This document shows, one piece after another, positions 19,577 to 33,398 of a DNA stretch of 64,000 nucleotides. Every line of letters begins with the position of its first letter. Positions within the stretch are counted from its first letter, which is position 1. The position numbers and the translations under genes are program-made. The DNA lies in NCBI GenBank assembly GCA_963668175.1, contig OY764159.1, positions 1,056,001 to 1,120,000 of the forward strand, read 5' to 3'. The stretch is from Syntrophales bacterium (lineage in GTDB: Bacteria; Desulfobacterota; Syntrophia; Syntrophales; PHBD01). Under the pieces are notes generated by a model. It was not told where the DNA came from and made no database searches. It saw only the letters and a program-made list of their open reading frames with translations.

Positions 19577-19912
19577 ATGAGTGCAGAAGAGAACCTGATG
19601 CATATAAACGACAGCAATTTCGAACAGGAGGTCCTCAAGTCGGCGAAGCCCTCCCTGGTCGATTTCTGGGCGCCGTGGTGCGGTCCCTGCAAGGCCATCG
19701 GGCCGCTTCTCGAAGAGCTGGCCAAGGATTATAAAGACCGTATCAATATCGTGAAGGTCAACGTCGACGACAATCCGAAAACGGCCGCCATGTACGGTGT
19801 CAGAGGTATTCCGACACTGCTCCTGATCAAAGACGGGAAGAATCTCGATACACTCGTAGGGCTGGTTCCGAAAGATAGACTGGAGACATTCATCAAGAAG
19901 GCCTTGCCCTAA
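19577..19912 (+). CDS. trxA: Thioredoxin
   Basis: DFWAPWCGPCK, GIPTL; GGAGG SD. Confidence 0.97.
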   Translation: MSAEENLMHINDSNFEQEVLKSAKPSLVDFWAPWCGPCKAIGPLLEELAKDYKDRINIVKVNVDDNPKTAAMYGVRGIPTLLLIKDGKNLDTLVGLVPKDRLETFIKKALP

Positions 19913-21318: not shown

Positions 21319-21394
21319 TGGAGGCGGCAACCGGATTTGAACCGGTGAATAACGGTTTTGCAGACCGCTGCCTTAGCCACTTGGCTATGCCGCC
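21319..21394 (-). tRNA. tRNA-Cys (GCA)
   Basis: GGCGGCATAGCCAAGTGGCTAAGGCAGCGGTCTGCAAAACCGTTATTCACCGGTTCAAATCCGGTTGCCGCCTCCA. Confidence 0.97.
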
Positions 21395-21407
21395 AAGAAT
21401 AAAAAAA

Positions 21408-21482
21408 TGGAGCGGGCGAACGGATTTGAACCGTCGACGTCTACCTTGGCAAGGTAGCACTCTACCACTGAGTTACGCCCGC
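21408..21482 (-). tRNA. tRNA-Gly (GCC)
   Basis: GCGGGCGTAACTCAGTGGTAGAGTGCTACCTTGCCAAGGTAGACGTCGACGGTTCAAATCCGTTCGCCCGCTCCA. Confidence 0.97.
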
Positions 21483-21656: not shown

Positions 21657-24600
21657 GTGCTTAAGGTGTTAAGCGATAACGAAAAAGTTGGCGCTGTGAT
21701 GGTAGTCGGCTCGGGTATAGCCGGTATCCAGGCATCCCTTGACCTGGCAAACTCGGGAATGAAGGTCTATCTTGTCGAGAACGGGATCAGCATCGGCGGG
21801 GTGATGGCCCAACTGGACAAAACTTTTCCTACGAATGATTGTTCTGCATGTATTCTTTCGCCCAAATTGGTGGAAGTCGGGCGACATCCGAATGTTGAGA
21901 TTCTAACCAGAAGAACGGTCGAGGCCGTTGAGGGGGAGCCGGGGCGTTTCAAAGTCAAAATGACGAAGGCCCCCAGGTTCATCGATTTGAATAAATGTAC
22001 CGGATGCGGCGATTGCGCCAATGCCTGTCCGGTCGAAGTCCCCTCCGGCTTCAACGAAGGCCTCAGCACTAGGAAAGCCACCTATAGGCACTTTCCCCAG
22101 GCCATTCCCAGCGGCTTCGCCATCGATAAGCTCGGGACGGCCCCGTGTAAAGCCAACTGCCCGACGCACATCAGCGTTCAGGGCTATGTGGCCCTGATCG
22201 CCAAAGGGCAATTCAAGGAAGCCCTGAGGCTCATCAAAAAAGACAATCCGTTCCCCATCGTTTGCGGCCGGGTCTGCAACCATCCCTGCGAAACAGCGTG
22301 TATGCGCGGCAAGGTGGATGAGCCCATCGACATCATGCACCTGAAGCGGTTTGTCGCCGATCTCGATCTCAAGGCGGAGACCCGCTATATTCCGGAGGTC
22401 AAAGAAAAGAAGAACAAAAAAGTGGCCATGGTGGGCGCCGGCCCGGCCAGTCTGACGGCCGCGTATTACCTGGCGGCGGAGGGCTACGACTGCGAAGTGT
22501 TCGAGTCCCTGCCCGTGGCTGGCGGATGGCTCGCCGTCGGTATCCCCGAATACCGCCTCCCCAAGGATGTCCTCAGGGCGGAGATCAAGGTGATCGAAGA
22601 CCTGGGCGTCAAAATCCATTTGAACACCAGAATCGGGAAGGACATACCCTTCGATAAACTGAAGACCGATTTCGACGCCGTCTTCATCGGCTGCGGAACG
22701 GCCCTGAGCAGCAAGCTCGACATCCCCGGCGAAGACATGCAGGGCGTGATCCACGGCGTCGATTATCTGCGCCGCATTAACCTGGGCGAAAAAGTCTTCC
22801 TGGGAGACCGTGTGGCCGTCATCGGCGGCGGCAACGTCGCCATGGACGCCGTGCGTACCGCGATCCGCACCGGCTCGAAGGATGTCTTCATCCTGTACCG
22901 CCGTTCCCGCAAGGAAATGCCGGCCTCGCCGGAGGAAATCGAAGAGGCCCTTGAAGAAGGGATCAAGATGGAATTCCAGGTCGCGCCTGTCCGGATCGTA
23001 GGCAAGGACGGGAAAGTGACGGGCATCGAATGCGTCCGGATGGAGCTGGGCGAACCCGATGCGAGCGGCCGCAGGCGTCCAATCCCCGTGAAGGGATCGG
23101 AGTTCATCGTCGAGGCGGACGCCATCGTTCCCGCCATTGGCCAGGCTGCGGACCTGACCTTCGTTCCGAAGGAGAGCGGCATCGCCATCAACAAGTGGGA
23201 TAATTTCGAGGTCGATCCTGTAACCTTTGCCGGCAACGTCCCCGGCGTTTTCGCCGGCGGCGACGTCGTCACCGGTCCGCAGACCGTCGTGAAGGCCGTC
23301 TACGCGGGAAAAGAGGCGGCCGTCTCCATTGACCGCTACTTGAGGGGCGAGGATATGAAGGCCGGCCGGGAGAAAGACTGGACGAAAGACGTTGCCGACC
23401 AGGGAGACACGAGTTGCGTCGAAAAAGAGCCTCGCGTCAAGTATCCCCATCTGAAGCCCGAAGACCGGAGGTCCGATTTCCGGGAAGTGGGCATCGGCTT
23501 CGGCGAGGCGGAGGCCGTGGCGGAAGCGAACCGTTGCCTCAGCTGCGGTATCTGTTCCGAGTGCTACCGCTGTGTCGACGTCTGTATAGCCAAAGCTGTC
23601 AACCATGACGACAAGTACGAAGAAGAAACCATCGAGGTTGGTGCCGTCATCGCCGCCCCCGGGTTTGAGATATTCGATGCCACGCTCCGGGGCGAATACG
23701 GACTCGGCCAATACCAAAATGTCGTGACGTCCATCCAGTTCGAGCGTATCCTTTCCGCGTCCGGGCCCTATTTCGGCCATGTACAGCGCATCTCCGACGG
23801 GAAGGAACCGAAAAAGGTCGCCTTCATCCAGTGCGTCGGGTCCCGCGACACGTCCTGTGATAACAGCTGGTGCTCTTCCGTCTGCTGTATGTATGCGACG
23901 AAGGAAGCCATCATCGGCAAGGAGCATGCGTCGGCACTGGAGCCGACGATCTTCTTCATGGATATCCGGGCGCACGGCAAGGACTTCGACCGTTTCGTCA
24001 ACCGGGCGAAGAACGAATACGGCATCCGCTATATCCGGTCGATACCTTCCAGCGTCAAGGAACTGCAGCAGTCGAAAAACCTGCTCATGAAATATGTGAA
24101 GGAGGACGGCACCATCGTCGAGGAAGAATTCGAAATGGTGGTCCTCTCGGTCGGTCTCACGCCGCCCAAGGAAGCGGTCAAACTGGCCGGAGCCCTGGGG
24201 GTGGAGCTTGAAGAGCACGGTTTCTGCAAGACCTCTCTGGAGAATCCCGTTGAAACGTCCCGCGGCGGCGTATTCGTCTGCGGCGCCTTCGGCGGTCCGA
24301 AAGACATTCCGGAAACCGTCATGGAAGCAAGCAGCGCGGCGGCCTGTGCTGAGGGTCTCCTTTCCTCGCGGCGCGGCACGATGATCTGCGAGCCGGATAT
24401 TCCGCTGGAAAACGACATCCGCGGCATCGGTCCGAGAACGGGCGTCTTTGTCTGCCACTGCGGCATCAACATCGGCGGCGTCGTCGATGTCCCGGCCGTC
24501 ACGGAATACGCCAAGTCGCTGCCCAACGTCGTCTTCACCATGGACAATCTGTTCACCTGTTCGCAGGATACGGCCGTCAAGATGGGCGAGGTCATCAAAG

Positions 24601-26090
24601 AGCAGAACCTGACCCGCGTCGTCGTGGCGTCCTGTTCGCCGCGAACCCACGAAGGGCTTTTCCAGGAGAACTGCGAAAAGGCGGGCCTGAATCCCTACCT
24701 GTTCGAAATGGCGAACATCCGCGATCAGAATTCGTGGGTGCACATGCATGAGCCGGAAGCGGCCACGGAGAAGGCCAAGGACCTCGTCCGGATGGCCGTG
24801 GCCAAGGCCGAGTTTCTCAAACCGCTGAAGCCCGGGCAGCTGACCGTCAACCATGCGGCCATGATCATCGGCGGCGGGTTGGCTGGCATCACGGCGGCCC
24901 TGTCCCTGGCCGACCAGGGGTTCGCCTCCTATATCGTCGAGAAGGAAGCGGCGCTGGGCGGTAACTATGCCAAGCTCCACTACACGCTGGAAGGCATGGA
25001 TACAAAGCAGCACCTGGCCCGTCTAATCGACCGGGTCAAAAAGAACGAGCTGGTTCACGTTTACACCGGTGCGAACATCAAGAAAATCGACGGCTTCATC
25101 GGGAATTACAAGACCACGCTGGAGACCAAAGACGGCGAAGTCCAGTTCGAGCACGGCGTCGTCATCGTGGCGACCGGGGCCTACGAACTGGAGACCAAGG
25201 AGTACCTCTACGGCCAGTCCGACCGGGTCGTTTCCCAGCGCGAGCTGGAGAAGATGATCGCCGAGAAGGACACCAAGCTGGCTCGGACGAAGAGCGTCGT
25301 CATGATCCAGTGCGTCGGGTCGAGGAACTCCGAGCGGCCTTACTGCAGCCGCTACTGCTGTTCCGAGGCCATCAAGAACGCCCTGAAGCTGAAAGAAACT
25401 GACCCGTCCACGGACGTGACCGTCATCTACAGGGACATCCGGACGTACGGTCTGAAAGAGGATTATTACAAAAAGGCGAGGGAACTGAACGTCAAGTTCG
25501 TCCGCTACGACGAAGACCGCAAGCCGGAAGTGAAGGCCGACGGCGCCGGGCTTTCGATCAAGGTTTTCGATCCTGTCCTGAACGAAGCGGTTGAACTGAA
25601 GACGGACCTCCTGGCCTTGAGCGTCGGCACGGTCCCGAATCCAGGCAACGAAGACATCGGCAAGATGCTGAAGGTCCCGACCAACCAGGACGGCTTCTTC
25701 CTGGAAGCCCATGTCAAACTGAGACCGGTCGACTTCGCGACGGACGGCGTGTTTATGTGCGGCATGGCCCATTCGCCGAAAATGAGCGACGAGAGCATCG
25801 TCCAGGCGAACGCGGCCGTTTCGCGGGCCTGTACGATCCTGACGAAGGATTACATCGAGGCGGAAGGCAAGACGGCCTATGTCAACAAGGATCGTTGCGC
25901 GGCCTGCGGGCTTTGCGAGGCCAACTGCCCCTTCAGCGCCATCTCCGTCGACTTCAACGAGCGCTGCGCGGTTGTGAACACGGTCTTGTGCAAGGGATGC
26001 GGTGTCTGTACGGCTTCGTGCCGCATGAATGCCGTCGACCTGAACGGATTCAACAACGAGGAAGTTCTGGCTCAAATCGCGGCACTGTAA
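21657..26090 (+). CDS. hdrA: Large heterodisulfide reductase A-like flavoprotein (HdrL type): two HdrA modules with an inserted GltD/NfnB-like NAD(P)H oxidoreductase module
   Basis: GSGIAG...LDKTFPTNDCSAC; CGRVC, GAGPA, GIPEYRLP, GGGNVAMD, YRR; two IQCVGSR...CS..CC motifs; FVCHCG, ASCSPRTHE, ANIRDQ; ferredoxin motifs; start may be GTG 21666. Confidence 0.9.
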   Translation: MLKVLSDNEKVGAVMVVGSGIAGIQASLDLANSGMKVYLVENGISIGGVMAQLDKTFPTNDCSACILSPKLVEVGRHPNVEILTRRTVEAVEGEPGRFKVKMTKAPRFIDLNKCTGCGDCANACPVEVPSGFNEGLSTRKATYRHFPQAIPSGFAIDKLGTAPCKANCPTHISVQGYVALIAKGQFKEALRLIKKDNPFPIVCGRVCNHPCETACMRGKVDEPIDIMHLKRFVADLDLKAETRYIPEVKEKKNKKVAMVGAGPASLTAAYYLAAEGYDCEVFESLPVAGGWLAVGIPEYRLPKDVLRAEIKVIEDLGVKIHLNTRIGKDIPFDKLKTDFDAVFIGCGTALSSKLDIPGEDMQGVIHGVDYLRRINLGEKVFLGDRVAVIGGGNVAMDAVRTAIRTGSKDVFILYRRSRKEMPASPEEIEEALEEGIKMEFQVAPVRIVGKDGKVTGIECVRMELGEPDASGRRRPIPVKGSEFIVEADAIVPAIGQAADLTFVPKESGIAINKWDNFEVDPVTFAGNVPGVFAGGDVVTGPQTVVKAVYAGKEAAVSIDRYLRGEDMKAGREKDWTKDVADQGDTSCVEKEPRVKYPHLKPEDRRSDFREVGIGFGEAEAVAEANRCLSCGICSECYRCVDVCIAKAVNHDDKYEEETIEVGAVIAAPGFEIFDATLRGEYGLGQYQNVVTSIQFERILSASGPYFGHVQRISDGKEPKKVAFIQCVGSRDTSCDNSWCSSVCCMYATKEAIIGKEHASALEPTIFFMDIRAHGKDFDRFVNRAKNEYGIRYIRSIPSSVKELQQSKNLLMKYVKEDGTIVEEEFEMVVLSVGLTPPKEAVKLAGALGVELEEHGFCKTSLENPVETSRGGVFVCGAFGGPKDIPETVMEASSAAACAEGLLSSRRGTMICEPDIPLENDIRGIGPRTGVFVCHCGINIGGVVDVPAVTEYAKSLPNVVFTMDNLFTCSQDTAVKMGEVIKEQNLTRVVVASCSPRTHEGLFQENCEKAGLNPYLFEMANIRDQNSWVHMHEPEAATEKAKDLVRMAVAKAEFLKPLKPGQLTVNHAAMIIGGGLAGITAALSLADQGFASYIVEKEAALGGNYAKLHYTLEGMDTKQHLARLIDRVKKNELVHVYTGANIKKIDGFIGNYKTTLETKDGEVQFEHGVVIVATGAYELETKEYLYGQSDRVVSQRELEKMIAEKDTKLARTKSVVMIQCVGSRNSERPYCSRYCCSEAIKNALKLKETDPSTDVTVIYRDIRTYGLKEDYYKKARELNVKFVRYDEDRKPEVKADGAGLSIKVFDPVLNEAVELKTDLLALSVGTVPNPGNEDIGKMLKVPTNQDGFFLEAHVKLRPVDFATDGVFMCGMAHSPKMSDESIVQANAAVSRACTILTKDYIEAEGKTAYVNKDRCAACGLCEANCPFSAISVDFNERCAVVNTVLCKGCGVCTASCRMNAVDLNGFNNEEVLAQIAAL

Positions 26091-26122
26091 TCGTAGATCA
26101 TAGATAATGGATTGGAGTTCAT

Positions 26123-26563
26123 ATGGGTGAGAATAAGACAACGGGAGACTGGGAACCTAAGATCATAGCCATCGTGTGCAACTGGTGCACTTATGCCGGA
26201 GCGGATCTGGCCGGGATAAGCAGGATTCAGTATCCGCCTAACGTGAGGATCATCAGGGTTCCTTGTACGGGCCGCATCAACCCCTTTTATGTCGTGAAGG
26301 CCCTGCAGGAAGGGGCCGACGGCGTGCTGGTTTCGGGCTGTCATCCGGGCGAGTGCCACTACCTGACGGGCAACCTGGCCGCCAGAAGAAAATTCGCGAT
26401 GCTGAAGAATTTCCTGAACTACATCGGCATCGAGGGCGACCGGACGATGTTCACCTGGGTGTCGGCGTCGGAGGGCGATCGTTTCGCCCAGGTCATCAAG
26501 GGCGTAACAGCCGCGGTGAAGAAATTGGGGCCTGCCGAGAAACTGGTGAAGAAGATCGCATAA
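26123..26563 (+). CDS. mvhD: MvhD/FlxD [2Fe-2S] subunit
   Basis: CNWCTYAGADLAG, RVPCTGR, GCHPGECHY, WVSASEG. Confidence 0.93.
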   Translation: MGENKTTGDWEPKIIAIVCNWCTYAGADLAGISRIQYPPNVRIIRVPCTGRINPFYVVKALQEGADGVLVSGCHPGECHYLTGNLAARRKFAMLKNFLNYIGIEGDRTMFTWVSASEGDRFAQVIKGVTAAVKKLGPAEKLVKKIA

Positions 26564-26591
26564 CCAATAAACTCATGAGGAATGATTAGCT

Positions 26592-27602
26592 GTGGAAAAT
26601 ATCGATAAAAAGCTGCAGGAAGAGGTCCGGAGACTGCTGGACGAAAAGAAGGTCGACGTCGTTGTCGGATATGAGCAGGGCACACTGCCGCTGACGGCCA
26701 CGCCCTGTTTTATAACCGCTTCTGCGGATGCGGATAAACTGGTCTGGAATGCCTTCTGCACACAAAATCTTGCCAAGTACGTTCACGATCTCATCTCACA
26801 GCACCGGGACTCTCAGAAGAGAGTGAAACCTGAGGACAGGAAAAAGAAGGTCGTCGGCGTCGTCGCCCGCGGCTGTGCGACACGCTCCATCGTCATCCAT
26901 CTTCAGGAGAAGCAGTACGACCGGGAAGATGTGGTCATCATCGGCGTTCCCTGTACGGGTTATGTCGACAAGACCAAGGTTGCCGCCAAACTGAACGGCG
27001 AAGAGGTCCTCGGCGGATCGCTGGAAGGCGACGAGCTCTCCGTCAAGACGGCCGGCGGCGACAAGAAAATGTCCTTGAAAGAAGTTCTGGCGAACAACTG
27101 CCTCACCTGCCGTTTCAACAACCCCGTTATCTCCGACATGATGATCGGCGCCGCCGCCCCGGCAATGGACGCCGACCGCGAGTATGCGGACGTGCAGGCC
27201 ATGGAGAAGCTTTCCGTCGAGGAGCGCTGGGCCTACTTCAAGAAGGAGATGGCCAAATGCATGCGCTGTTACGCCTGCCGCCAGGCCTGTCCTTCCTGCT
27301 ACTGCAAAGTCTGCTTCCAGGAACAAAGCCAGCCGCAATGGGTCGGTGTCGGCGAAGACCAGACGGATACGCAGGTCTTCCAAATGATGAGAATATTTCA
27401 CATGGTCGGACGCTGCGTCGATTGCGGGTCCTGCAACGATGTCTGCCCGATGGGCGTCAACCTGAGAATGTTCCTGAAGAAACTCGACAAGGACGCCTTC
27501 ATAATGTTCGACAGCCGGACCGGCGTTTCTCTGGACGAGCCGCCGCCGCTTTCCACGTACAAGGAGCACGAGAAAAGCGAGGACTTTATTTTTAATCCCT
27601 GA
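26592..27602 (+). CDS. FlxC/FdhB-like iron-sulfur protein
   Basis: CMRCYACRQACPSCYC, H..GRCVDCGSCNDVCP; FrhB/FdhB-like N-terminus. Confidence 0.8.
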   Translation: MENIDKKLQEEVRRLLDEKKVDVVVGYEQGTLPLTATPCFITASADADKLVWNAFCTQNLAKYVHDLISQHRDSQKRVKPEDRKKKVVGVVARGCATRSIVIHLQEKQYDREDVVIIGVPCTGYVDKTKVAAKLNGEEVLGGSLEGDELSVKTAGGDKKMSLKEVLANNCLTCRFNNPVISDMMIGAAAPAMDADREYADVQAMEKLSVEERWAYFKKEMAKCMRCYACRQACPSCYCKVCFQEQSQPQWVGVGEDQTDTQVFQMMRIFHMVGRCVDCGSCNDVCPMGVNLRMFLKKLDKDAFIMFDSRTGVSLDEPPPLSTYKEHEKSEDFIFNP

Positions 27603-27697
27603 TTTACAGAGGGTTTCGCAACTGCGAATAACATATTAGTTCAATCTTACGGCAGCCGGCCGCCAGCGAAAAACGGCCGCAGCCGAATGGAGACCGC

Positions 27698-28225
27698 ATG
27701 AATACCTTTCTTGAAGAAGTAAACAGTCAAATCAACGGCGTTCCCATCCAGCGATGCTACCATTGCCGGAAATGTACGGCCGGATGCCCCCTGGCCTCCG
27801 TGATGGAGTACAACCCCAACAAGGTCATCAAGATGATCCAGATGGGCAAGCGCAGCGAAGTCCTGAACAGTTCGACCATCTGGCTTTGCGCCTCCTGTGA
27901 GACCTGCATTACCCGCTGCCCGAACCAGGTGGATATCGCCCGCATGATGGATGTCCTCCGGGAGATGGCCATTGCTTCGGGCGTTGGGGCCAAAGAGAAG
28001 AACATCCTCAAGTTCCACGAATCGTTCCTCTCCAACATCAAGCTGGGCGGCCGCATCAACGAACCGACCATGATGGTCCAGTATAAGCTCAAATCGGGAG
28101 ATCTCTTTTCCGATATGGGGATGGGCATCAACATGTTCCTCAAGGGCAAGCTGGCCCTCATCTCCCCTAAGACGAAAAATATCGACGCCGTAAGAAAGAT
28201 TTTTGAAAAAACGAAGCATGCGTGA
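27698..28225 (+). CDS. hdrC: Heterodisulfide reductase subunit C-like
   Basis: CYHCRKCTAGCP...IWLCASCETCITRCP. Confidence 0.9.
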   Translation: MNTFLEEVNSQINGVPIQRCYHCRKCTAGCPLASVMEYNPNKVIKMIQMGKRSEVLNSSTIWLCASCETCITRCPNQVDIARMMDVLREMAIASGVGAKEKNILKFHESFLSNIKLGGRINEPTMMVQYKLKSGDLFSDMGMGINMFLKGKLALISPKTKNIDAVRKIFEKTKHA

Positions 28226-28248
28226 AGCGTAAACGAAGGAGGCCATAG

Positions 28249-29100
28249 TTGAAAGTTCAATATTATCCAGGATGTTCCCTTCATGGTACGGCCAAGGAAT
28301 ACGACCAGTCGATGAAGGCGGTCAGTCGCGCCCTGGGGATCGAGTTACAGGAAGTCGAGGATTGGTCTTGTTGCGGCGCCACATCGGCCCATGCCACGAA
28401 TTACAAGCTGTCAGTCGCGCTGCCGGCACGCAACCTGATGCTGGCGGAAAAGGCCGCCGCGAAGGATGTCATGGTTCCCTGCGCCGCCTGCTTTAATCGC
28501 TTCAAGTCCGCCCAGCACCATCTCGCTCACGATCAGGCGTTGAAAGCGGAGGTGGAGGGCATCGTCGGCGGCAAGTACAAGGGCGAACTGTCCATCAAGA
28601 ACCCGATCGATATCATTTACGGCAATATCGGCCTCGACGCCCTCGCGGCCAAGGTCGTGAAGCCGCTCGCGGGGATCAAGGCCGCTTCCTATTACGGCTG
28701 CCTGCTCCTGCGTCCGCCGGAAGTATGCGAATTCGACGACTACGAGAATCCCATGATGCTCGACGGGATTCTGAAGGCGATAGGCGCGGAAGCCCGGCCC
28801 TGGTCCTACAAGACCGACTGCTGCGGCGGAAGCCTTACAATCAGCAAGACATCCATCGTGGTCTCCATGGTGGACAAACTGATGACCATGGCCCGGGAAG
28901 CGGGCGCAAACTGTATTGTGACGGCGTGTCCCGTTTGTATGGCCAATCTGGATATGAGGGCAAGCAGCCACCTCAAGCTTCCGGTCTTCTATTTTACGGA
29001 GCTTCTCGCACTCGCTATGGGATTGCAGGGGCCCGCGGACTGGTTCAAGCTGCACAACGTCGATCCGACGCCGCTCGTCGGCAGCCTGCAGCTTATGTAA
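28249..29100 (+). CDS. hdrB: Heterodisulfide reductase subunit B-like
   Basis: YYPGC, WSCCGA, PCAAC, YYGC, CCGG, TACPVC (CCG domains). Confidence 0.92.
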   Translation: MKVQYYPGCSLHGTAKEYDQSMKAVSRALGIELQEVEDWSCCGATSAHATNYKLSVALPARNLMLAEKAAAKDVMVPCAACFNRFKSAQHHLAHDQALKAEVEGIVGGKYKGELSIKNPIDIIYGNIGLDALAAKVVKPLAGIKAASYYGCLLLRPPEVCEFDDYENPMMLDGILKAIGAEARPWSYKTDCCGGSLTISKTSIVVSMVDKLMTMAREAGANCIVTACPVCMANLDMRASSHLKLPVFYFTELLALAMGLQGPADWFKLHNVDPTPLVGSLQLM

Positions 29101-29175
29101 TATGACCGAGGATGAAAGGCGCTGCCGGTACAGGCAGACCATGATCCACAATAACCTATCAGAATAAGGCAGACT

Positions 29176-30198
29176 ATGGAAAAGAGGTTAATCAAGAAAG
29201 ACGCGCTTACCGGGCTGGTGAAGAAAATTGCCGAAAGGATGCCTGTCTATGCGCCGGTCAAGGTCGAGGATAATATTCTGTTCAAGGCGCTGGAAAAGGG
29301 AGACGAGCCCCTGGCCGCCTTCGCCAACAGCAAGAACGCGCCGAAGAATTTCTTCTTCCCCCATACGGAAGTCATGATGCGTTATACCCGGACCGCCAAG
29401 GGTTCGGAGTTTTCCGGCGGTGCGACGGAGGCCGAAGAGAGGGTGCTGTTCGGCGTCCGGCCCTGCGATGCCCGGAGCTTCATTCTTCTGGACAAGCTTT
29501 TCGATCAGGAGAAGTACAGGGACACGTTCTATATCGACAAGAGAAACAAGACGACGATCGTTGCGATCGCCTGCGCCCATCCCCCGTATTCGACGTGCTT
29601 CTGTACGTCCGTCGGCGGCAATCCGACCTCTGCGGATGGTGCGGACGTACTCCTGACAGATCTGGGCGACCAGTATCTCGTAGAGTTTATAACGCCGAAG
29701 GGCGAAAAATATATCAAGGATTTCGGGGACGCCAAGGCCGACGAAGCTGCGGAGAAGAAAAAGGCCGCCATCGCCGCCCAGGCGGAAGGTGAGATCAAGT
29801 CCCGCATTCCGGCCAAGGAGATCAAGCCGATCCTCGATGCCAATTTTGAGCATCCCTTCTGGGGGACCATCCACCAGAGGTGCCTGGCCTGCGGTACATG
29901 CACCTACCTGTGTCCGACATGCCACTGCTTCGACATCAGCGATGAAGTCAAGCATGAGGACGGCAGGCGCCTTCGCAATTGGGACTCCTGCATGTACCCG
30001 CTCTTTACGCTGGAAACGTCGGGGCACAACCCCCGGCCCACCCAGAAAGAGCGGTGGCGCCAGCGGGCGATGCACAAATTCCGTTATTTTGTGGATAATT
30101 TTGAGGCCATTGCATGCGTAGGCTGCGGAAGATGCGTCATGTACTGCCCTGTCAATATTGATATCAGAAAAATCGTCGAGGATATTTCGAAACTATAG
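29176..30198 (+). CDS. flxB: FlxB (AsrA/HydB-like) 4Fe-4S protein
   Basis: GVRPCD, CFCTS, CLACGTCTYLCPTCHCF, WDSC, CVGCGRCVMYCP. Confidence 0.8.
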   Translation: MEKRLIKKDALTGLVKKIAERMPVYAPVKVEDNILFKALEKGDEPLAAFANSKNAPKNFFFPHTEVMMRYTRTAKGSEFSGGATEAEERVLFGVRPCDARSFILLDKLFDQEKYRDTFYIDKRNKTTIVAIACAHPPYSTCFCTSVGGNPTSADGADVLLTDLGDQYLVEFITPKGEKYIKDFGDAKADEAAEKKKAAIAAQAEGEIKSRIPAKEIKPILDANFEHPFWGTIHQRCLACGTCTYLCPTCHCFDISDEVKHEDGRRLRNWDSCMYPLFTLETSGHNPRPTQKERWRQRAMHKFRYFVDNFEAIACVGCGRCVMYCPVNIDIRKIVEDISKL

Positions 30199-30212
30199 CG
30201 TGGGAGAGTGTC

Positions 30213-31052
30213 ATGCAGAATCCATATGTACCCATTCCCGTTGAGGTAGCCAAAATCATTACGGAGGTCGACAGTAAGGACATCAAGACCTTCCGTTTTG
30301 CCTTCGTCAACAAGGAAGATGAAGAGAAGTTTAAATACATTCCCGGACAGTTCGGGGAGCTTTCCATATTCGGCAAGGGCGAGTCGCCGATCGGCATAGC
30401 CTCCTCCCCGACGCAGAAGGGCTACGTTGAGTTTACCGTCCAGCGGGCGGGCGTCGTGACGACGGCCCTGCACAGCATGGAAGAAGGAACGCGGATGGGT
30501 ATCCGGGGACCGTTGGGCAATTCCTGGCCCATCGAGTTTCTGGAAGGCAAGAATATCGTGATCGTCGGCGGCGGTTTTGCCTTCACGACGCTGCGCTCCC
30601 TGATCAACTATATGATCCACGAGAGCAACCGTTCCCGCTTCGGCAAGATCACCGTCGTGTACGGTGCCAGGACCCCCGGACTCCTGCTCTACAAGGACGA
30701 ATTGATCGAATGGGAAAAACGGGGCGATATCAATCTGAACGTTACGGTGGACAAAGGGGACGCGACCTGGAAAGGCCGGGAAGGGTTTGTGCCGGCCGTT
30801 TGCAAGGAAGTGGCACCCAGTTCGGACAATGCGGTGGCCCTGATCTGCGGTCCGCCCATTATGATCCGCTTCACCCTGCCCGTCTTTTTCGAGCTGAACT
30901 TCTCGAAGGATAATATCATAACGTCCTTGGAAATGAGGATGAAATGTGGTATTGGTAAGTGCGGACGTTGCAACGTGGGGAGCAAATACGTCTGCAAGGA
31001 CGGGCCGGTATTTTCACTTGCTGAGCTTGATCAACTGACCAAAGAATACTGA
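30213..31052 (+). CDS. flxA: FlxA (AsrB/PyrK-like) FAD/NAD-binding [2Fe-2S] protein
   Basis: PGQF, RGPLGN, GGG, CGPPIM, MKCGIGKCGRC...VCKDGPVF. Confidence 0.83.
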   Translation: MQNPYVPIPVEVAKIITEVDSKDIKTFRFAFVNKEDEEKFKYIPGQFGELSIFGKGESPIGIASSPTQKGYVEFTVQRAGVVTTALHSMEEGTRMGIRGPLGNSWPIEFLEGKNIVIVGGGFAFTTLRSLINYMIHESNRSRFGKITVVYGARTPGLLLYKDELIEWEKRGDINLNVTVDKGDATWKGREGFVPAVCKEVAPSSDNAVALICGPPIMIRFTLPVFFELNFSKDNIITSLEMRMKCGIGKCGRCNVGSKYVCKDGPVFSLAELDQLTKEY

Positions 31053-31092
31053 TTCACTAAAAACCGTCAAACCGCGATAAAAAAGCTGGAGG

Positions 31093-31127
31093 AAGGGGAG
31101 CCGCCAAGTGGGCTCCCTTGTTTTTTT
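31093..31127 (+). terminator. Intrinsic terminator between flxA and nfnA
   Basis: AAGGGGAGCC-GCCAAGTG-GGCTCCCTT-G-T7. Confidence 0.65.
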
Positions 31128-31159
31128 ACACCCCCCTCTGCCAAAAGGAGATGGAAGCT

Positions 31160-31996
31160 TTGAACAAAATCATAGAGAAACAGAATATTTCGGAGAGTGT
31201 CGTCCGGATGGTTCTCGAAGTTCCGGACGTCGCCCGGAAAAGGAAGGCCGGCCAATTCATTATTCTGAAGCTCGACGAGAAGGGCGAGAGGATACCGCTC
31301 ACCATCGTCGATTCGGATGCGGAAAAAGGCACGATCACGATCATCTTTCAAATCGTCGGCAAGACGACGGCCGTCCTGGGGTCATTGAATCCGGGAGACA
31401 GCCTTCAGGACGTCCAGGGACCCCTGGGGAACCCGACGGAAATTGAAAACTTCGGGCACGTCGTCTGCGTCGGCGGCGGCGTCGGCGTCGGCGTCGTCTA
31501 TCCCCTGGCGGTGGCCCTGAAAAAAGCCGGCAACAAGGTGACGTCCATCATCGGCTCGCGAACAAAGGAGCTGATCATCCTGGAAGACGAAATGAGCAAG
31601 GTCAGCGACCGCCTTCTCGTCGCCACCGACGACGGTTCCTACGGTTTCCACGGGTTCGTGAGCGCCGTTCTCCAGAATCTCATAGACGCCGGGGAGAAGA
31701 TCGATCACGTCTTCGCCATCGGTCCCGTACCGATGATGAAAGTGATCAGCAACGTCACGAGGCCTTACGGCATCAAGACGACGGTCAGCCTGAATTCCAT
31801 CATGGTTGACGCCACGGGGATGTGCGGCGCCTGCCGGGTTTCCGTGGGGGGTGAAACGAAATTCACCTGTGTTGACGGCCCGGAGTTCGACGGTCACAAG
31901 GTCGATTTTGATTTATTATCGAGCCGCCTGAAGATGTACTGTGATGTTGAAAAACAGGCGTTTGAACTGCATAGGTGCGGATGCGATGGAAACTGA
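31160..31996 (+). CDS. nfnA: NADH-dependent reduced ferredoxin:NADP oxidoreductase small subunit (NfnA/SudB)
   Basis: GQFII...GERIPLTI, GPLGNP, IGPVPMM, MVDATGMCGACRV...CVDGPEFD (Asp-ligated [2Fe-2S]); start TTG 31160 or ATG 31151. Confidence 0.9.
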   Translation: MNKIIEKQNISESVVRMVLEVPDVARKRKAGQFIILKLDEKGERIPLTIVDSDAEKGTITIIFQIVGKTTAVLGSLNPGDSLQDVQGPLGNPTEIENFGHVVCVGGGVGVGVVYPLAVALKKAGNKVTSIIGSRTKELIILEDEMSKVSDRLLVATDDGSYGFHGFVSAVLQNLIDAGEKIDHVFAIGPVPMMKVISNVTRPYGIKTTVSLNSIMVDATGMCGACRVSVGGETKFTCVDGPEFDGHKVDFDLLSSRLKMYCDVEKQAFELHRCGCDGN

Positions 31997-33398
31997 AAAG
32001 AAAGATAAGAAGGAAAAAGTTCCCCGGCACAAGATGCCGGAACAGAAACCCTCGGAAAGAATCCGTAATTTCGGCGAAGTGCCGACCGGATATCCGGCGG
32101 AAACGGCCATTGCCGAGGCCAAGCGCTGCATCCAGTGCAAGAAGCCCGGCTGCATTACCGGTTGTCCCGTGGATGTGGACATACCCGGATTCATCAAATT
32201 GATCGCCGAAGGCCAGTTTATCGAAGCGGCCCTGAAGCTCAAGGAGACCAACGGCCTTCCCGCCGTCTGCGGCCGGGTCTGCCCGCAGGAGGACCAGTGC
32301 GAGAAGCTCTGCATCCTGGGCAAGAAGGGCGAGCCGGTGGCGATCGGTAGGCTGGAGCGTTTTGCCGCCGATCTGGAGAGGGAATCGGGCCATATTTCCA
32401 TACCTCCGATCCCGGCCCCGAACGGTAAGAAGGTGGCCGTTGTCGGCGCCGGACCTTCGGGCCTGACCATCGCCGGCGATCTCGTCAAACTCGGCTACGA
32501 AGTGACGATATTCGAGGCACTTCACCAGGCCGGGGGCGTCCTCGTTTACGGTATCCCCGAATTCAGGCTCCCCAAGAAGATCGTTCAGGCCGAGGTCGAT
32601 TATCTGCAGAAAATGGGCGTCAAGATCGTCCTCAATGCTGTTATCGGCCGCATCAAAACGGTGGACGAACTCTTCGCCGAGGGCTTCAACGCCGTCTATC
32701 TGGGTGTCGGCGCCGGCGCCCCCGTCTTCATGGGCATTCCGGGCGAAAACCTGAGTGGCATCTATTCGGCCAACGAATATCTCACAAGGTCCAACCTGAT
32801 GAAGGCCTATCTCTTTCCCGAGTACGATACGCCCATCGCCCGGGGCAAGAACGTCGCCGTCATCGGCGGCGGCAATGTGGCCATGGATTCGGTCCGGACG
32901 GCCCTGAGGCTGGGGGCGGACAACGCCTACATCATTTACCGCCGTACGGAGGTGGAGATGCCTGCCCGTATCGAGGAGGTCCACCATGCCAAGGAAGAAG
33001 GTGTCCAGTTCAAGCTGCTCACCAATCCGATTGAATACATCGGCGATGAAAACGGCTGGGTCAAAGGGATCAAGTGCCTCCAGATGGAGCTGGGGGAACC
33101 CGATGAATCGGGCCGCAGGAGGCCGATAGCCGTCAAGGGCTCCGAATTCGTTATCGATGTCGATACGGTCGTGGTCGCCGTAGGCACCATGGCAAACCCC
33201 ATCGTTCCCGCCACGACACCGGGGCTCACAACGAACAAATGGGGCTATATCGTGACGAAGGACGAGAATGGAGAGACGACCAGGCAAGGGGTCTATGCCG
33301 GCGGCGATATCGTAACCGGATCGGCGACGGTGATCCTGGCCATGGGTGCGGGCCGCAAGGCGGCGCACGCCATCCACGAGTATCTCTCGCGGAAATAG
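31986..33398 (+). CDS. nfnB: NfnB/SudA large bifurcating subunit (often annotated as homotetrameric glutamate synthase)
   Basis: CIQCKKPGCITGCP, CGRVCPQEDQCE, LERF, GIPEFRLP, GGGNVAMD, YRR, GSATVILAMGAG; overlaps the end of nfnA. Confidence 0.9.
   Translation: METEKKDKKEKVPRHKMPEQKPSERIRNFGEVPTGYPAETAIAEAKRCIQCKKPGCITGCPVDVDIPGFIKLIAEGQFIEAALKLKETNGLPAVCGRVCPQEDQCEKLCILGKKGEPVAIGRLERFAADLERESGHISIPPIPAPNGKKVAVVGAGPSGLTIAGDLVKLGYEVTIFEALHQAGGVLVYGIPEFRLPKKIVQAEVDYLQKMGVKIVLNAVIGRIKTVDELFAEGFNAVYLGVGAGAPVFMGIPGENLSGIYSANEYLTRSNLMKAYLFPEYDTPIARGKNVAVIGGGNVAMDSVRTALRLGADNAYIIYRRTEVEMPARIEEVHHAKEEGVQFKLLTNPIEYIGDENGWVKGIKCLQMELGEPDESGRRRPIAVKGSEFVIDVDTVVVAVGTMANPIVPATTPGLTTNKWGYIVTKDENGETTRQGVYAGGDIVTGSATVILAMGAGRKAAHAIHEYLSRK

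Follow-up and report, generated by a model that had tools for sequence, protein, structure and literature searches.

The DNA analysed here (the window) is a 64,000-nucleotide stretch of contig OY764159.1 from a Syntrophales bacterium. At positions 21657–33398 it contains nine intact open reading frames (ORFs), all on the plus strand, that form an Hdr–Flx cluster followed by nfnAB. The order is hdrL-mvhD-flxC-hdrC-hdrB-flxB-flxA, with intergenic gaps of 14–95 nt, then a terminator-like hairpin and nfnAB, exactly as listed in an initial annotation made from the sequence alone. MvhD is presumably the same protein as FlxD; at that, flxA, B, C and D are all clustered with hdrA, B and C, as in Flx-Hdr systems. 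The gene identities are borne out by family searches (HdrA and GltD domains, MvhD, HdrC, HdrB, FlxB, FlxA, NfnA, NfnB), and the survey of ORFs in the span yields no catalytic gene of a hydrogenase or formate dehydrogenase, again in agreement with the initial annotation. The usual gene order is hdrCBA-flxDCBA, and the order in the window, first described as scrambled, amounts to one relocation of hdrCB. The cluster touches on the open question of how electrons move among NADH, NADPH and ferredoxin in Rnf-less fatty-acid and alkane syntrophs.

A synteny survey, suggested together with the annotation, was performed on the 69 best related loci, which are 76–89% identical to the window cluster. Most of them are titled Syntrophales, Syntrophaceae or Smithellaceae, and the rest are mostly deltaproteobacterial bins. 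Since the loci were picked via exact peptide words, conservation counts based on them lean high. The complete seven-gene set is present in 38 loci, and in all 38 the order is that of the window; the remaining 31 stop at most 213 nt beyond their last gene, and the order is broken in none. The seven-gene order is not due to chance. In an even sample of the class (121 genomes, the host of the window counted in) an HdrL ortholog is found in at least 85 genomes, that is, in at least 70%: 73 are full-length and 12 partial at 73% identity or more. The figure of 85 is a minimum, as the listing did not include 226 weaker matches. In the phylum, the insert region of HdrL described below is matched at E 1e-170 or better in 65 of 201 genomes. 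Among 20 high-scoring loci of the wider phylum, taken from 85 matches listed, flxC-B-A is present in six: one has the window order, three have the usual order with HdrL (hdrC-hdrB-hdrL-mvhD-flxC-flxB-flxA), and two are stretches without hdrBC. Many Smithellaceae loci (L019, L021, L028, L033, L035–L039 and others) feature a second hdrC-hdrA-mvhD-flxC-type cluster just after flxA; it encodes an ordinary HdrA and occupies the slot where other loci have nfnAB. Four genomes of family f16 (G048, G050, G095, G097) have no HdrL ortholog; they have Rnf and several tandem (type II) HdrA genes free of the insert.

The hdrL gene (21657–26090) encodes a protein of 1477 aa with HdrA and GltD domains. Its first half (about aa 12–920) carries an FAD domain, the Cys62/65 pair, E696, K749, an HA4-type cluster and an inserted ferredoxin domain that is split by a 473-aa insert (about aa 159–631) and keeps all eight Cys. 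In the alignment to solved HdrA, residues 15–158 and 632–849 make up a single FAD module, and the insert is placed within the exit domain for low-potential electrons. The second half (aa 926–1477) consists of an HA3-type N-domain, a second FAD domain and a C-terminal 2x[4Fe-4S] ferredoxin domain. The Cys pair (equivalents of Cys202/205) and the exit domain are found in one module in half 1 and are not found in half 2. According to PMC12350162 and PMC13580544, in solved Hdr dimers the N-terminal domain and the C-terminal domain of one HdrA together with MvhD form a mobile arm, which serves the FAD, the Cys pair, HA4 and HA5/6 of the partner HdrA, the inserted ferredoxin domain being the electron exit. 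Half 1 corresponds to the core and half 2 to the arm; therefore HdrL holds one working set, and it is a fused, asymmetric pair of HdrA units, probably with one bifurcating FAD. It differs in this from the HdrA of Flx-Hdr, which is a single module whose inserted ferredoxin domain is free for the reduction of ferredoxin. The equivalents of K409/E356 in half 1, K749/E696, are retained in 66/66 Syntrophales rows and in all 20 wider-phylum loci, and those of half 2, K1240/E1198, in 10 of the 20.

The predicted fold of half 1 is consistent with this layout. A structure model of aa 1–920, built from a 35-row alignment, has pLDDT 85.8 and pTM 0.79 and matches the arm-less HdrA core 8RWN_A with TM 0.94 by target length; NfnABC/StnC chains rank at the top of the structure comparison. 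In two loci, L107 and L108, there is an in-frame stop at the equivalent of HdrL residue 65, the second Cys of the Cys62/65 pair, which is probably selenocysteine.

The insert itself scores higher against NfnABC/StnC chains (484, 452 and 421 bits) than against NfnB (370 and 349 bits). K230 of the insert takes the position of StnC K170, which is Glu in NfnB; Lys is found in 67/67 rows, the NfnB-type Glu ligand of the FAD-proximal cluster thus being absent, and the 20 wider-phylum loci have 18 Lys, two His and no Glu. The domain order is of the StnC type, a C-terminal CxxC closes the distal cluster, and a YRR motif is present at positions 414–416 in 68/68 rows. The motif stands for NADP(H) use in NfnB and DsrL-2 (PMC7596348), and its presence indicates that the insert uses NADP(H) as well. 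Judging by sequence, the insert is a StnC/NfnABC-type FAD/NADPH module, non-bifurcating as the FAD of StnC is described to be (PMC10482914), rather than an NfnB-like one. The host genome encodes six further GltD-like paralogs besides HdrL and NfnB. It also has a NiFe-hydrogenase-like cluster (G000:C1:1424713-1432648, minus strand) with a 1018-aa NuoF-like/GltD fusion, a further case of an NADPH module, in another redox enzyme.

The flxA gene (30213–31052) encodes a gamma-like FAD/NAD(P)-binding protein with an all-Cys [2Fe-2S] motif, the putative NADH-type port. Both ports named in the initial annotation, for NADH in FlxA and for NADPH inside HdrL, are retained here. The flxA gene is followed by a hairpin of 9 bp with a T-run (31094–31119), resembling an intrinsic terminator and situated 31 nt 5' of the nfnA start. 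The adjacent nfnA (31151–31996) and nfnB (31986–33398) genes are canonical: NfnA scores above the cut-off of NF004862 and has the Asp-Cys3 [2Fe-2S] motif, with the Asp in 10/10 relatives, whereas NfnB, recognised in family searches, has the Glu cluster ligand and the Arg at the FAD, both also in 10/10. No sigma70-like plus-strand site was found between the hairpin and nfnA, and therefore nfnAB is probably expressed by partial read-through. Of ten flxA-nfnA spacers of relatives that were folded, about six show, as judged by eye, a comparable hairpin whose tail is rich in T.

An nfnA match is present in 49 of the 85 listed HdrL genomes, immediately 3' of a flxA in 37 of the 49, and absent from the other 36. 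In view of these 36 genomes, a role of NfnAB as a fixed subunit is improbable; NfnAB is likely a separate, standard enzyme. An apparent rarity of the nfnAB linkage among the related loci (10 of 33 loci with room for it) proved to be an artefact of the Smithella-rich set of top matches, as the 37 of 49 come from the even class sample. In one genome (G091:C3:34982-40711) nfnA lies head-to-head with hdrL rather than after flxA, so that the linkage is retained in another arrangement.

The initial annotation envisaged several potentially bifurcating flavins in one complex. In its full form this would be a supercomplex to which NfnAB is attached; the insert would pair with FlxA or NfnA and bifurcate in the manner of NfnB, and bifurcation would take place at the FADs of both HdrA halves as well. 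The insert indeed shares 44% identity with the adjacent NfnB, and FlxA shares 27–30% with NfnA; the Lys and Glu residues are kept in both halves of HdrL in the Syntrophales, and nfnAB is frequently adjacent. However, FlxA has Cys where NfnA has Asp, the insert has Lys in place of Glu and the StnC-type domain order, half 2 has neither the Cys pair nor the exit domain and has lost its Lys and Glu in ten of the 20 wider homologs, and nfnA, preceded by a terminator-like hairpin, is missing in 36 carriers. We regard this arrangement as very improbable. A better description is an enzyme that has one bifurcating site and a fixed outlet to NADPH, accompanied by a separate NfnAB.

The mvhD gene (26123–26563) encodes the [2Fe-2S] adaptor (PF02662, E 9e-53), with five Cys kept in 16/16 rows. 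The flxC-type gene (26592–27602) encodes an FdhB-like Fe-S protein, whose top PDB matches are FdhB (E 2e-19); this subunit class sits on the MvhD arm in Fdh-Hdr. The flxB gene (29176–30198) encodes a sulfhydrogenase-beta/AsrA-like Fe-S protein, as found by family and PDB sequence searches. Although flxB and flxC are set apart by hdrCB, their products are predicted to bind one another: the model of the complex scores 0.89, as compared to 0.00 for the best of three controls, with contact agreement of at least 97% and partner pLDDT of at least 86. Among solved pairs, 116 of 157 attain the mark used for this score, as do 2 of 215 mismatched pairs; for self-made alignments these rates are only rough. 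The predicted contact links the Cys-motif segments FlxB 237–244 and FlxC 226–232. PDB sequence searches showed no entry containing relatives of both proteins. The other contacts are suggested by likeness to Fdh-Hdr structures, and assembly of the seven gene products is plausible.

The hdrC gene (27698–28225), identified by family searches, encodes a 2x[4Fe-4S] protein with eight Cys kept in 41/41 rows. HdrB (28249–29100) has two CCG domains with all ten Cys of the two non-cubane clusters (39/39 rows), and its best PDB matches are catalytic HdrB chains, both features expected of a disulfide reductase. HdrB might instead relay electrons to another protein, as in EMO, whose related non-cubane domain accepts electrons from ETF (bioRxiv 10.64898/2026.08.18.745454); the scores of HdrB beneath the NCBIfam cut-offs for methanogen HdrB and the lack of a co-occurring thiol carrier are in line with this. 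At the same time, each of the two solved EMOs has lost one ligand, whereas HdrB has kept all ten Cys, and its closest structures are catalytic; we deem a relay highly unlikely. HdrB scores equally well against the SdhE model of a fumarate-reductase anchor, so counts of "sdhE" in Smithellaceae surveys may be counts of hdrB.

We propose, as a reading with a somewhat less than even chance of being right, that the seven genes encode one soluble complex, a disulfide-driven transhydrogenase with a single bifurcating FAD, and that NfnAB, as a separate enzyme, turns NADPH into reduced ferredoxin. While the genes, their order, the domain layout and the conserved motifs are observed, the electron path (drawn from methanogen Hdr structures), the reaction and the direction in which it runs are inferred, as is its coupling to NfnAB in two steps. 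Electrons from NADH would enter at FlxA and pass via FlxB and FlxC to the C-terminal clusters of half 2, then via MvhD and Cys62/65 to the FAD in half 1. Of the two electrons, the high-potential one would take the path from HA4 to HdrC, HdrB and the disulfide, and the low-potential one would move from the shuttle cluster of half 2 to the inserted ferredoxin domain of half 1 and further, through the two clusters and the FAD of the insert, to NADP+. The predicted reaction is 2 NADH + R-S-S-R + NADP+ -> 2 NAD+ + 2 R-SH + NADPH, and in a second step NfnAB would use NADPH to yield reduced ferredoxin.

The energetics were calculated with literature in vivo potentials of -280 mV for NADH and -370 mV for NADPH and an assumed -450 or -500 mV for ferredoxin. 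The reaction of NADH with disulfide and NADP+ breaks even at a disulfide potential of -190 mV, the cascade with NfnAB at -195 to -170 mV, and direct reduction of ferredoxin at -110 to -60 mV; for comparison, the potential of CoM-S-S-CoB is -140 mV (PMC5296606). The break-even potentials would explain why the insert is there and why nfnAB lies next to the cluster. They also bear on the published view of Flx-Hdr and of the Smithella cluster, in which the low-potential acceptor stays ferredoxin; the role left to the insert would then be that of an additional donor site for NAD(P)H electrons or of a side branch. The split ferredoxin domain with its eight Cys retained agrees with this view, but the insert lies within the exit domain, where the type III insert is predicted to block ferredoxin (PMC12054007), and one-step transfer from NADH to ferredoxin would be uphill by 6–35 kJ at disulfides of -140 to -240 mV. 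We consider an ordinary Flx-Hdr reaction improbable.

As the direction depends on the disulfide partner, the main rival is the same wiring run in reverse in vivo, NADPH and reduced thiol being confurcated to NADH. This would raise high-potential thiol electrons to the level of NADH for release of H2 or formate, with NfnAB supplying NADPH. Over -140 to -240 mV the reaction departs from equilibrium by no more than about 10 kJ, the backward direction being favoured below -190 mV, and confurcation with an uncharacterised thiol–disulfide pair is cited in Qin 2017. Still, the reverse reaction consumes NADPH while 36 of the listed carriers have no nfnA match, and no thiol-generating partner has been identified. 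Hence we hold the reverse direction to be unlikely, and retain the forward transhydrogenase as the preferred description.

The initial annotation left the disulfide acceptor unnamed, and this stands. It also called for a check of dsrC and dsrAB; both are present in the host, but DsrC is found in only 34 of the 85 listed HdrL genomes and absent from 51, and the absence extends to seven HdrL genomes of at most ten contigs (G015, G028, G047, G052, G056, G068, G084). DsrC as an obligate partner is thereby rejected. It is a possible partner in this host only and not across the order, and most carriers must have a partner other than DsrC. In a single genome (G054:C8:103558-116993) dsrC and hdrL share a strand, with dsrC lying some 9 kb upstream. 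In the window, a thioredoxin gene (19577–19912) is located just upstream of the cluster; it is outside the 45 most shared neighbour families of the 69 loci and the window. Closer to hdrL, tRNA-Cys and tRNA-Gly genes (21319–21482) are on the opposite strand.

The host genome is one contig of 4.57 Mb with a single hdrA-type gene, and therefore has no Qmo. It encodes DsrAB, DsrC and DsrMK-type proteins (the membrane gene names were read from translations): outside the window, at G000:C1:3579366-3592927 on the minus strand, dsrA-dsrB-dsrN-like-dsrC precede two dsrMK-like pairs and dsrJOP-like genes, and the gene of a membrane transporter lies upstream. Searches of the genome found no Sat, no AprA above the cut-off and no Rnf. 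Sulfate reduction is rejected on account of the lack of Sat, AprA and Qmo, and the dsr cluster without them is read as sulfite respiration; a glycyl-radical gene (isethionate-lyase type, PFL family) as the sulfite source was not found in the host. Elsewhere the genome encodes [FeFe]-hydrogenase and molybdopterin enzymes, as well as etfAB with a two-CCG membrane gene that resembles EMO, a label again taken from translations. RnfD is present in only 11 of the 121 class genomes, including all four of family f16, and this, together with the Syntrophales lineage of the host, suits the syntrophic setting assumed initially. Rnf is found in 5 of the 85 listed HdrL carriers and 6 of the 36 other genomes, a weak exclusion among kin that are not independent.

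Several observations weigh against the proposed transhydrogenase. K1240/E1198 of half 2 are kept in 59/59 Syntrophales rows, and the FAD of half 2 may retain a role. The Arg marking the bifurcating FAD of NfnB, where it is hydrogen-bonded to FAD N5, is present in the insert (68/68) and likewise in the non-bifurcating StnC (PMC10482914). In PMC12054007 the archaeal insert is taken as the port at which NADH donates electrons and not as one for an acceptor. A disulfide below -190 mV would by calculation drive the reaction backwards. As to the disulfide and its recycling, DsrC is absent from 51 listed carriers, and no small thiol carrier is conserved among the neighbour ORFs clustered from the 69 loci and the window. 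With respect to the cascade, 36 listed HdrL genomes are without an nfnA match, and ten genomes with no HdrL ortholog have flxA adjacent to nfnA, so the linkage is older than the insert or independent of it and does not single out the cascade. Finally, enzyme, expression or mutant data for the complex were not found in the literature.

The cluster is real and strongly conserved, but its components are known, as is the cluster as such, which is not a discovery. The initial annotation took HdrL-type proteins to be biochemically uncharacterised; indeed, we found no biochemical study of the cluster and no statement that a disulfide drives the passage of electrons from NADH to NADP+, although subscription papers may hold an earlier description, and Flox-Hdr is termed uncharacterised in PMC7382037. 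On the other hand, the cluster has been tabulated for Smithella and a GltD-inserted HdrA has been described. The Hdr/Flox locus of Ca. Smithella cisternae M82_1 (437_38-51; PMC5606693) is of the same type: its large first gene, with a BLAST score of 2767 to its top match, is also annotated as gltD; after it, 437_42 and 437_43 are hdrC and hdrB, 437_44 encodes an Fe-S protein, and 437_45 is of the FlxA type. The span continues to a second FlxA-type gene (437_51), whereas in the window nfnAB follows. Hdr/Flox was proposed there as a replacement of Rnf with an unknown thiol pair; the description, as far as accessible, assumes ferredoxin output and does not recognise the NADPH insert and the fused HdrA pair. 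In a survey of Smithella, 89% have HdrABC/Mvh, and dsrAB and Rnf are absent (PMC13685792).

FlxABCD-HdrABC of Desulfovibrio vulgaris (Ramos 2015) has the same subunits (FlxA, B, C, MvhD/FlxD, HdrA, B, C) and NADH input; the standard reading of Flx-Hdr is given in PMC7082340, PMC5861303 and PMC10553843. By comparison, in the window the fused HdrL of 1477 aa with its NADPH module stands in place of HdrA, hdrCB is relocated, and DsrC is missing from most listed carriers. HdrL was named and defined in 2009 for Desulfobacterium autotrophicum HRM2 (PMC2702500). Both there and in HdrABC/HdrL of Syntrophobacter fumaroxidans (PMC5947623), where this complex and Hdr/Flox were detected by proteomics, a large fusion of HdrA with an NAD(P)H-binding module is followed by mvhD and an FdhB-like gene; in the window, too, HdrA carries a GltD-like NAD(P)H module as an insert, and mvhD is the next gene. 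These two bacteria are sulfate reducers and their clusters, as described, are free of flxAB, unlike the window, whose host has no Sat or AprA. Among archaeal HdrA (PMC12054007), type II has two thioredoxin-reductase domains and type III has GltD at the inserted ferredoxin domain; HdrL joins features of both in one protein. For type II the same source proposes NADH use and two bifurcations, while the motifs of HdrL point to NADPH and one site. The anatomy of HdrL yields a specific reaction that can be assayed, disulfide-dependent transfer from NADH to NADP+, unlike the ferredoxin output assumed in the published accounts consulted here.

A close parallel to the insert is provided by StnABC/NfnABC (PDB 8OH5, 9BOV, 9N5U; PMC10482914), where the same kind of FAD/NADPH module, non-bifurcating and with a cluster ligated by Lys, is plugged into a separate bifurcating module. 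In HdrL that bifurcating module is HdrA rather than HydBC-like, and a disulfide would take the place of ferredoxin as third substrate. It is conceivable, though doubtful, that the complex adds a third type to the bifurcating transhydrogenases Nfn and Stn, with a disulfide replacing ferredoxin as the driver and a thiol carrier other than DsrC; chained by NfnAB into a ladder from NADH to NADPH to ferredoxin (3 NADH + 2 disulfide + Fd_ox), it would then replace Rnf in the Syntrophales.

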